From the UHGV virus genome UHGV-0014912: DNA of 33,704 nt; one strand, 5' to 3'. The stretch's first letter is position 1; the number at the start of each line of letters is the position of its first letter. The notes under the pieces were generated by a model, which saw nothing but the letters and a program-made list of their open reading frames with translations, was not told the origin of the DNA and did no database searches. The stretch comes from a virus. The position numbers and the translations under genes were made by a program. This document shows positions 31,923 through 33,554 of the stretch, one piece after another.

Positions 31923-31961
31923 ATTCTAATCCTTTCAATCACTTAGTAGAGAGTATCAATT

Positions 31962-33554
31962 TTGCTCCTTAGCAACAACATCACCATGCAGTTCGGCAGT
32001 AAGCCGTTGTTTGAAAACATTTCCGTCAAATTTGGCGGCGGCAACCGTTACGGCCTGATTGGCGCGAACGGTAGTGGTAAATCCACCTTTATGAAGATCC
32101 TCGGCGGCGACTTAGAGCCGACTTTGGGTAACGTTTCCCTCGATCCCAACGAGCGCATTGGTAAGCTGCGTCAGGATCAGTTTGCCTTTGAAGAGTTCAC
32201 TGTGCTGGATACGGTGATCATGGGGCATAAAGAGTTGTGGGAAGTGAAGCAGGAGCGTGACCGCATCTATGCTTTGCCGGAAATGAGTGAGGAAGACGGC
32301 TATAAAGTGGCCGATCTGGAAGTTAAATACGGCGAAATGGACGGTTACTCTGCGGAAGCTCGCGCCGGTGAATTGTTGCTTGGCGTGGGAATTCCAGTGG
32401 AACAGCACTACGGCCCGATGAGTGAAGTTGCTCCTGGCTGGAAGCTGCGTGTGCTTCTGGCGCAGGCGCTGTTTGCTGATCCGGATATTCTCCTGCTCGA
32501 CGAACCGACCAACAACCTCGACATCGACACCATTCGCTGGCTGGAACAGGTGCTGAACGAGCGTGACAGCACCATGATCATCATCTCGCACGACCGTCAC
32601 TTCCTTAACATGGTCTGTACCCACATGGCGGATCTGGATTACGGCGAGCTGCGCGTTTATCCGGGTAACTACGATGAGTACATGACGGCGGCGACCCAGG
32701 CGCGTGAACGTCTGCTGGCCGATAACGCCAAGAAGAAAGCGCAGATTGCTGAGTTGCAATCTTTCGTTAGCCGCTTTAGCGCCAACGCCTCGAAATCTCG
32801 CCAGGCAACTTCGCGCGCGCGCCAGATTGATAAAATCAAACTGGAAGAGGTGAAAGCCTCCAGCCGTCAGAACCCGTTCATCCGTTTTGAACAGGATAAG
32901 AAACTGTTCCGTAACGCGCTGGAAGTGGAAGGTCTGACCAAAGGGTTTGATAACGGTCCACTGTTTAAAAATCTCAACCTGCTGCTGGAGGTCGGTGAAA
33001 AACTTGCGGTACTGGGTACCAACGGCGTCGGTAAATCAACGCTGCTGAAAACGCTGGTGGGCGATCTGCAACCGGACAGCGGCACCGTAAAATGGTCTGA
33101 AAACGCGCGCATTGGTTACTACGCCCAGGACCACGAATATGAGTTTGAAAATGATCTGACCGTGTTCGAATGGATGAGTCAGTGGAAGCAGGAAGGCGAT
33201 GACGAGCAGGCGGTACGCAGCATTCTCGGTCGTTTGCTGTTCAGCCAGGACGACATCAAAAAGCCAGCTAAAGTGCTTTCCGGTGGGGAAAAAGGGCGGA
33301 TGCTGTTTGGTAAGTTAATGATGCAGAAGCCGAACATTCTGATCATGGACGAACCGACCAACCACCTGGATATGGAATCCATCGAGTCACTGAACATGGC
33401 GCTGGAACTGTATCAGGGCACGCTGATCTTTGTTTCACACGACCGTGAGTTCGTAAGCTCCCTGGCGACCCGCATTCTGGAAATCACCCCGGAACGCGTG
33501 ATCGACTTTAGCGGTAATTACGAAGATTACCTGCGTAGTAAAGGGATCGAGTAA
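31962..33554 (+). CDS. ybiT: ABC-F family ATPase YbiT (host gene); 5' end possibly remodelled by prophage insertion
   Basis: 530 aa with two ABC domains (Walker [10 protein letters not shown] and GTNGVGKST, signature LSGGEKGR); ORF track start is TTG at 31962, first in-frame ATG at 31986. Confidence 0.85.

Follow-up and report, generated by a model that had tools for sequence, protein, structure and literature searches.

The 33,704-nt viral DNA stretch UHGV-0014912, referred to below as the window, holds one whole prophage together with both of its junctions with the host chromosome (attL, 216-265; attR, 31959-32008). Herein, the joining of this prophage to the 5' end of the host gene ybiT is analyzed. 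The prophage is flanked by the ldtB-ybiT intergenic region on the left and by ybiT on the right. Window positions 1-241 are identical to positions 1268-1508 of the Escherichia coli K-12 segment L001, which take in the ldtB-ybiT intergenic region and 23 bases at the 5' end of ybiT, that is, codons 1-7 and two bases of codon 8. Identity to K-12 ybiT resumes at 31981, and this base corresponds to position 1505 of the same segment, in which the ybiT coding sequence starts at 1486. The analysis shows that the phage replaces the 5' end of ybiT with its own DNA and that the replacement keeps the gene at full length. The features are collected in Table 1.

The phage gene next to ybiT at attR encodes a large serine recombinase. 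Its catalytic domain matches Resolvase (PF00239, E = 2.3e-20, residues 8-163) and is followed by a Recombinase domain (PF07508, E = 8.3e-14, residues 192-284). The N-terminus reads YSYIRFSSKKQ, and the expected serine-containing motif is present. Residues 296-338, where a zinc ribbon is to be expected, match Zn_ribbon_recom (PF13408) at 15.3 bits, below the cut-off of 25.3; this segment has four cysteines (C303, C324, C332, and a further one close by), and a heptad-like region at 340-420 comes after it. The integrase is 76% identical to the recombinase of an island in E. coli O111, and its best solved relative is the phiC31 integrase (E = 1.7e-4, catalytic domain only). A preliminary description of this DNA, made from the letters alone, had already named a serine integrase, and the domains bear this out. 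The start of the gene at 31922 was also placed correctly there; the distance to the ybiT frame, given as 40 bp, is corrected to 39 bp (31923-31961).

The attachment sites were determined by comparison with K-12. The sole sequence common to attL, attR, and attB is TCAC, and the junctions match K-12 exactly, attL up to TCAC and attR from TCAC on. When the two phage ends are joined, the reconstructed attP is …AGAGAGTATCAATTTTGCTCCTTAGCAACAACATC-AC-AATATAGTTTCAAAGCGACAAAATC…, with a predicted junction sequence of …AACAACATCACAATATAGTTTC…, and it lies directly upstream of the phage's own integrase gene. Every possible centre was scanned for reverse-complementarity of the two 24-nt attP arms. The arms agree at 16 of 24 positions when centred on the AC in TCAC and at 3-8 of 24 at other centres. 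The attB arms also peak at the same AC (9/24). Comparison with K-12 and FORC_041 places the crossover inside ybiT codon 8, and the codon is completed by a host-specific base directly after AC, giving ACC in E. coli, ACT in both Enterobacter and Leclercia, and ACG in Hafnia, which fits this crossover position. A non-palindromic central dinucleotide, imperfect inverted half-sites, and almost no identity between attP and attB form the signature of the large serine recombinases, the architecture of which has been reviewed (PMC3783163). From these sequence comparisons it is near certain that a serine integrase inserted the phage at the AC in codon 8 and that the phage supplied the start codon and seven codons of the resulting gene. 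The attachment core had been expected near 31965-31990, and TCAC at 31981-31984 falls inside this interval. Prophage-free strains do not share the whole of 31962-31990 with the window: K-12 identity begins at 31981, and BLAST alignments of prophage-free genomes begin at 31977.

A 5-bp inward shift of the distal motif in attB relative to attP, as predicted by the LI-integrase model, was looked for by eye, and a weak TT[A/T]N[G/T] resemblance was all that appeared. A distant blastn comparison of the attP region with 50,697 phage records returned short tape-measure similarities only.

Table 1 Features of the window at and around the ybiT insertion.
Feature	Coordinates	Strand	Basis
B arm of attL: end of the native 5' untranslated region, GTG start (219-221), codons 2-7	216..239	+	Identity to K-12
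Stub open reading frame at attL: native promoter, ribosome-binding site (CAGGA), GTG, MLVSSNVTI, stop TAG at 246-248	219..248	+	Read from sequence
TCAC overlap at attL, crossover AC at 240-241	238..241	+	Sequence sharing, attP dyad symmetry
P' arm of attP, left-end phage half-site AATATAGTTTCAAAGCGACAAAAT	242..265	+	Reverse complement matches P arm at 16/24
Prophage body, ~31.7 kb	242..31982	.	Open reading frame list, PHROG matches, syntenic lysogen NZ_CP107720
Intrinsic-terminator-like hairpin, GGGAGCCTCGTGCTCCC then TTTTGATG	279..295	-	Terminator scan; 38 bp from crossover, after tape-measure gene
Tail tape-measure protein gene, 799 aa, outermost left-end phage gene	301..2700	-	PHROG 13674, E = 1.1e-72
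Large serine recombinase (integrase), 501 aa	30417..31922	-	Pfam Resolvase and Recombinase domains
AGAGAGTATCA, 11-nt segment outside the dyad, invariant in every lineage	31948..31958	+	Pairwise comparisons
P arm of attP, phage half-site ATTTTGCTCCTTAGCAACAACATC; encodes TTG (31962-31964) and codons 2-7 of hybrid ybiT	31959..31982	+	Dyad symmetry, lineage variants
Hybrid ybiT open reading frame, 530 aa; codons 1-7 phage, 8-530 host	31962..33554	+	Open reading frame list, TTG start given in lysogens by the Prokaryotic Genome Annotation Pipeline (PGAP)
TCAC overlap at attR, crossover AC at 31983-31984 = ybiT codon 8 positions 1-2	31981..31984	+	Junction comparison, dyad symmetry
B' arm of attR: ybiT codon 8 position 3 through codon 16	31985..32008	+	Identity to K-12

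The hybrid ybiT is uninterrupted from its TTG to its stop. It begins TTG CTC CTT AGC AAC AAC ATC ACC ATG (MLLSNNIT), with the first ATG at codon 9 (31986-31988), as the preliminary description had read it. K-12 ybiT begins GTG TTA GTT TCC AGT AAC GTC ACC ATG, or (M)LVSSNVTM, and the deposited YbiT sequence of PDB entry 9njf begins MLVSSNVTMQFG. Both agree with the N-terminus MLVSSNVT that had been given for K-12, with GTG, not ATG, as the native start codon. The phage-supplied TTG falls exactly where the native GTG was. Relative to K-12, the phage-derived codons 1-7 bring in only the conservative changes V3L, S5N, and V7I. Beyond codon 7, the hybrid protein is identical to the K-12-type YbiT in the PDB over the first 120 residues, the span that was aligned.

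The alignments of the YbiT family indicate that the replaced N-terminal residues matter to the protein. All cluster representatives of the family, down to ~40% identity, begin with M-[LI]-x-x-x-[N/E/D/G/Q]-[ILVC]-[STG] at residue 1, and N is the commonest residue at position 6. The N-terminal strand has its equivalent in the first beta-strand of the second ATP-binding domain, with which it aligns. Each conserved family position (L2, N6, I7, T8) is retained in the phage-encoded N-terminus. The same alignments bear on the possibility that the true ybiT start is the ATG of codon 9, in which case the phage would have replaced only the 5' leader and the new N-terminus would be an annotation artefact. 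PGAP does call this ATG in NZ_CP027380 and NZ_CP027587 (522 aa), one gene caller does likewise in an Erwinia contig, and, as a start codon, ATG is stronger than either GTG or TTG. However, the family starts eight residues before the equivalent Met/Leu/Ile, with the conserved strand M-[LI]-x-x-x-N-[ILV]-[ST], and this strand has its counterpart in the second ATP-binding domain. The YbiT sequence of the solved structures includes these residues, and in neither the native nor the hybrid gene is the ATG preceded by a Shine-Dalgarno-like sequence. A start at codon 9 is thus highly improbable.

Across lysogens, the PGAP start of ybiT is inconsistent, with TTG (530 aa) in several and the codon-9 ATG (522 aa) in others. 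Even identical lysogen DNA is called from TTG in some cases and from ATG in others, whether by PGAP or by another gene caller. In the six lysogen junctions examined, including that of the long-established O111 lineage, ybiT is annotated as intact and not as a pseudogene, and no decayed copy is found among them.

The preliminary description had supposed that the first codons and the promoter-proximal region of ybiT were replaced; codons 1-7, together with the ribosome-binding site and promoter-proximal DNA, all come from the phage. A Shine-Dalgarno-like AGAGAG, part of the 11-nt segment at 31948-31958, is supplied by the phage 8 nt before the TTG (AGAGAG-N8-TTG). Its predicted duplex with the anti-Shine-Dalgarno sequence is comparable with that of the native site (-3.3 to -5.0 versus -4.1 kcal/mol). 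With the native 5' end and its upstream region 31.7 kb away at attL, transcription of the hybrid gene would have to begin in phage DNA. Any expression of ybiT would then depend on phage-derived sequence, as had been proposed.

The distribution of this arrangement was determined in bacterial and viral collections. Related large serine recombinases are located at exactly this junction in 60 of 5,426 complete E. coli genomes. Of the 5,423 genomes with ybiT, 60 align through the junction, and the others, in a spread sample, start at window position 31977. Seven of the 60 are of the phage type, with 88-96% DNA identity over the 5' part of the integrase gene. The remaining 53 are of an island type of ~9 kb, with 72% DNA identity, and include O111:H- 11128 and O103:H2 12009. 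The island is thus the commoner occupant of the ybiT site, and it occurs in Klebsiella, Erwinia, and Hafnia as well. One example lies at 40824-49860 of NC_013364.1 (E. coli O111:H- 11128), with the same ybiT attB and an Ec05-type recombinase. The island cargo comprises a DNA methyltransferase, a small serine recombinase, an HNH endonuclease, and a helix-turn-helix protein, without phage structural genes. The same arrangement is present in Enterobacter, Leclercia, Citrobacter, Klebsiella, Erwinia, and Hafnia, as well as in 4 IMG/VR prophages and 12 metagenome contigs. The loci in Klebsiella, Erwinia, and Hafnia all carry the same island-type P arm, so the number of P-arm variants stays at six.

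These variants were compared for signs of coding constraint. The TTG and the open frame are kept in 6/6 variants. Of the six variable sites in the P arm, four are synonymous, with CTC, CTT, and TTG all coding for Leu and AAC alternating with AAT, whereas only 20% of single changes made at random would be so. The remaining two sites are Ser/Cys and Ile/Val. When the P' half-sites are read in the register of the P arm, TGA appears at codon 4 in 5/5 lineages, where the P arms have AGC, TGC, or TGT. Lineages differ from each other at 1-6 of 24 positions in the P arm versus 5-12 of 24 in the variable P' arm. In the 11 nt beyond the dyad, all pairwise comparisons give 0 differences on the ybiT side, whereas the P' counterpart is essentially random, with differences at 7-10 of its 11 positions. 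The conservation of the P arm holds even though the integrase genes are only ~72% identical in DNA. The synonymous bias, the avoidance of TGA, the asymmetry between P and P', the invariant 11 nt, and the conserved N-terminal residues favour selection for a working ybiT, with none of them strong alone. From these patterns it is probable that the restoration of ybiT was selected and is not accidental.

The same patterns must be weighed against insertional silencing, in which ybiT would be cut off from its promoter and off in lysogens, while the open frame, the TTG, and the similar residues would be by-products of the resemblance between the P and B arms, both of which are bound by the same integrase. 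The hybrid gene has no recognisable promoter in front of it. The proximal half-site motif is found in all four arms, one of the two amino-acid changes covaries with P', and seven stop-free codons have a chance of ~70%. Silencing would also be tolerated, as ybiT is not known to be essential. However, the P' arms indicate that the integrase tolerates far more variation, including the TGA that the P arm never has, and a start codon exactly at the native position has a probability of ~5% by chance. Outside the dyad, the eleven bases vary on the P' side but never on the ybiT side, the variable sites of the P arm are mostly synonymous, and ybiT is annotated as intact in the six junctions. Silencing is considered unlikely but a serious alternative.

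The invariant 11 nt and the P arm lie 26-60 bp upstream of the integrase ATG, where the integrase promoter must be. Their conservation could thus serve a promoter, operator, or leader of the integrase gene, on the opposite strand of the same 60 bp, and have no relation to ybiT. Minus-strand upstream open reading frames fit such a role. In the lineage of the window, the reverse strand of the P-arm region (31946-31972) has a perfect TAAGGAG, 5 nt, and a TTG that opens a 6-codon frame (TTG ATA CTC TCT ACT AAG TGA), with 19 nt between its end and the integrase ATG. The corresponding frame of the island lineage has 11 codons and overlaps the integrase ATG (ATATGA). This frame may be a leader peptide or a coupling device for the integrase. 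However, neither the frame nor its Shine-Dalgarno sequence is conserved between lineages, no consensus promoter is present on the minus strand here, and the synonymous-site pattern and the avoidance of TGA in the ybiT frame would be left unexplained. Integrase control as the sole reason for the conservation is quite improbable, and it is compatible with selection on ybiT rather than exclusive of it.

The best explanation of the locus is as follows. A temperate tailed phage of ~31.7 kb integrated by its large serine recombinase through attP x attB recombination, with attB spanning ybiT codons 1-16. Exchange at the central AC (240-241 / 31983-84) left the native promoter region, the ribosome-binding site, the GTG, and codons 1-7 at attL as a 9-codon stub. 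The P arm became joined to the rest of ybiT, and the same DNA is an integrase half-site and, on the plus strand, the 5' end of the gene. It provides the AGAGAG, the TTG at the position of the native GTG, and seven codons (LLSNNI plus the AC of Thr8), which recreate the conserved N-terminal beta-strand of the first ATP-binding domain. With the P arm joined in frame, the lysogen keeps a full-length 530-aa YbiT with three conservative changes. The gene would then be transcribed from a promoter in phage DNA, and its level and regulation would be set by the prophage. The explanation as a whole, from the insertion and the phage-supplied 5' end to the selected restoration and the phage-driven transcription, is given a probability of about 0.7.

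Several points weigh against this explanation. There are six variants only, and the statistic on synonymous sites is weak (roughly p = 0.02, with sites that are not independent). The proximal motif AAC.A.AT is common to all four half-sites, and part of the similarity between P and B is expected because the same integrase recognises both. In strain PSS-15, Ile/Val covaries with the P' arm, and at least part of this change therefore belongs to the integrase site. Recombination between co-resident elements could homogenise the host-side arm. A TTG with a weak Shine-Dalgarno sequence is a poor initiation site. A consensus scan of the plus strand upstream of the hybrid ybiT found no sigma-70 promoter, and a relaxed scan of four lineages gave no more than 8/12 matches, at positions that are not conserved; the relaxed scan is uninformative, since the K-12 region gave no convincing native promoter either. 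As for activity of the phage, an exact junction-pattern scan of IMG/VR for a free or circular attP gave no match, and a P-arm pattern able to match attP or attR found only attR forms in IMG/VR and the metagenome contigs.

A further step would be that the P arm is dual-coded. One stretch of 35 bp would be selected at once as an integrase half-site, as a translation-initiation region, and as the first beta-strand of a host ribosome-associated ATPase. YbiT would be placed under phage control in both transcription and translation, through a new promoter and a TTG where GTG had stood. The prophage, and the related island across the Enterobacterales, would then retune the level of YbiT and not just spare the gene from damage. 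This idea is tentative and rather unlikely.

Several consequences follow for work on ybiT and on integrases. In ~1% of complete E. coli genomes, and in many Klebsiella and Enterobacter, the first seven codons of ybiT are phage- or island-derived, and annotation pipelines give such genes either 530 aa or 522 aa. The locus is a clean case of an integrative element that swaps the 5' end of its target instead of the usual 3' end. The asymmetry between P and P' is a natural read-out of the sequence freedom allowed by the integrase. If ybiT is expressed from phage signals, the lysogen is a natural promoter and ribosome-binding-site swap for a translation factor with a role that is still being worked out. 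Recombinases of the Ec05 type are already of interest as tools, and constraints on an attP arm that go beyond recombination are relevant to their designers.

The rest of the prophage carries genes for a terminase, a portal, a protease/major-capsid fusion, tail fibres, a J-like central fibre, and lysis functions, as well as cargo. The tape-measure gene at the left end also resembles phage tape-measure genes at the DNA level. Once the phage is circular, this gene would lead across attP into the integrase gene on the same strand, which is an unusual gene order; attP and the integrase gene are thus inside or beside the tail module. Next to the integrase gene, in AT-rich DNA, is an open reading frame of 245 aa (29521-30258, minus strand), with PHROG 30303 (unknown function) as its sole match and no Pfam family. 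It is placed much as a moron, a type of accessory cargo gene, would be. A protein of 298 aa (26214-27110, minus strand) has a CAP12/Pycsar-effector TIR domain (PF10137, E = 4.8e-38) and looks like anti-phage defence cargo of the prophage by this domain match; a 99-aa open reading frame (27110-27409, minus strand) lies directly upstream of its gene. Two homing-endonuclease-like genes are present in the early/cargo region (22091-22699, minus strand; 23562-24008, plus strand), with a NUMOD3 motif in one of them and a GIY-YIG domain in the other. On the host side, a REP-like palindrome, GCCTGATGCGCTACGCTTATCAGGCC, recognised by eye only, is located downstream of ybiT at 33610-33645, in ordinary host intergenic DNA.

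A syntenic prophage is present in E. coli 2021CK-01361 (NZ_CP107720), likewise between ldtB and ybiT. A TIR protein is annotated in it at the same position, and it additionally has a 'retron Ec67 family' reverse transcriptase. Two ISEc68 copies interrupt its terminase and J-like genes, and this copy, unlike that of the window, is therefore probably defective. The window prophage was also considered as the historical 34-kb Ec67 element. This was rejected: retron Ec67 is located in a 186-related prophage (PMC6868368), and the window has no such gene.

The attachment-site pair has already been catalogued. Durrant et al. (2022, Nat Biotechnol; PMC10083194) list in supplementary table 4 an E. coli large serine recombinase, 'Ec05', among those 'experimentally characterized', and the start of its printed sequence (MKQNGKAYSY...) matches the recombinase of the O111 island. 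As given there, the Ec05 attB is the 5' end of ybiT with the 4-bp GTGA/TCAC overlap in the centre, the same as the attB of the window phage, and the attP printed for Ec05 has the same sequence as the one rebuilt here from E. coli O111 11128. Supplementary table 1 of the same paper contains a phage-type E. coli recombinase (MQKQNGLAYSY...) with the same attB, near-identical to the window integrase. The window phage differs from the Ec05 element in its own P' arm and cargo. The paper treats recombinases and attachment sites as genome-engineering tools, and its attachment-site rows and term-matched passages mention neither the target gene nor the consequence for ybiT. Full-text literature searches on ybiT as an attachment site found no description of the replacement of its N-terminus. 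The 5'-end replacement is an unusual case of a known class and not a new class.

The domain order of the window integrase, with Resolvase and Recombinase followed by a Cys-rich, putative zinc-ribbon segment and a possible coiled coil, resembles that of phiC31, Bxb1, A118/LI, TP901-1, and SPbeta SprA. The short attachment sites, the imperfect dyad around a non-palindromic dinucleotide, the location of attP beside the integrase gene, and the near absence of identity between attP and attB (4 bp in the window phage) are likewise those of the classical serine integrases. In sequence, the window integrase is very distant from them. The ybiT open reading frame is kept whole, whereas the textbook serine integrases either interrupt the gene that they enter (comK for A118, spsM for SPbeta, groEL1 for Bxb1, a pirin-like gene for phiC31) or insert into non-coding DNA.

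Elements that rebuild their target include phage 21 and e14 at icd, the tRNA-targeting phages, and SCCmec at the end of rlmH/orfX, which uses the serine recombinases CcrAB. As in these cases, the insertion at ybiT is within a conserved host coding sequence, and the gene stays at full length through an element-borne, diverged copy of the displaced end. However, the icd, tRNA, and SCCmec elements replace the 3' end and keep the host promoter and start, whereas the ybiT phage replaces the promoter, the ribosome-binding site, the start codon, and the N-terminal strand. The tyrosine-integrase cases rely on an extended identical core, whereas the ybiT phage shares 4 bp with its target and its replacement is embedded in an integrase half-site.

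A further comparison is with active lysogeny, as in the A118-like prophages in Listeria comK and in SPbeta, for which the insertion in B. subtilis spsM has been described as an active-lysogeny switch (PMC5499854). The ybiT phage is likewise a serine-integrase prophage within a host gene, and its precise excision, for which large serine recombinases need a recombination directionality factor, would restore the native allele. In active lysogeny the target is split and non-functional until excision, whereas the ybiT open reading frame is intact in both the integrated and the excised state, so that the insertion does not form an on/off switch of the reading frame.

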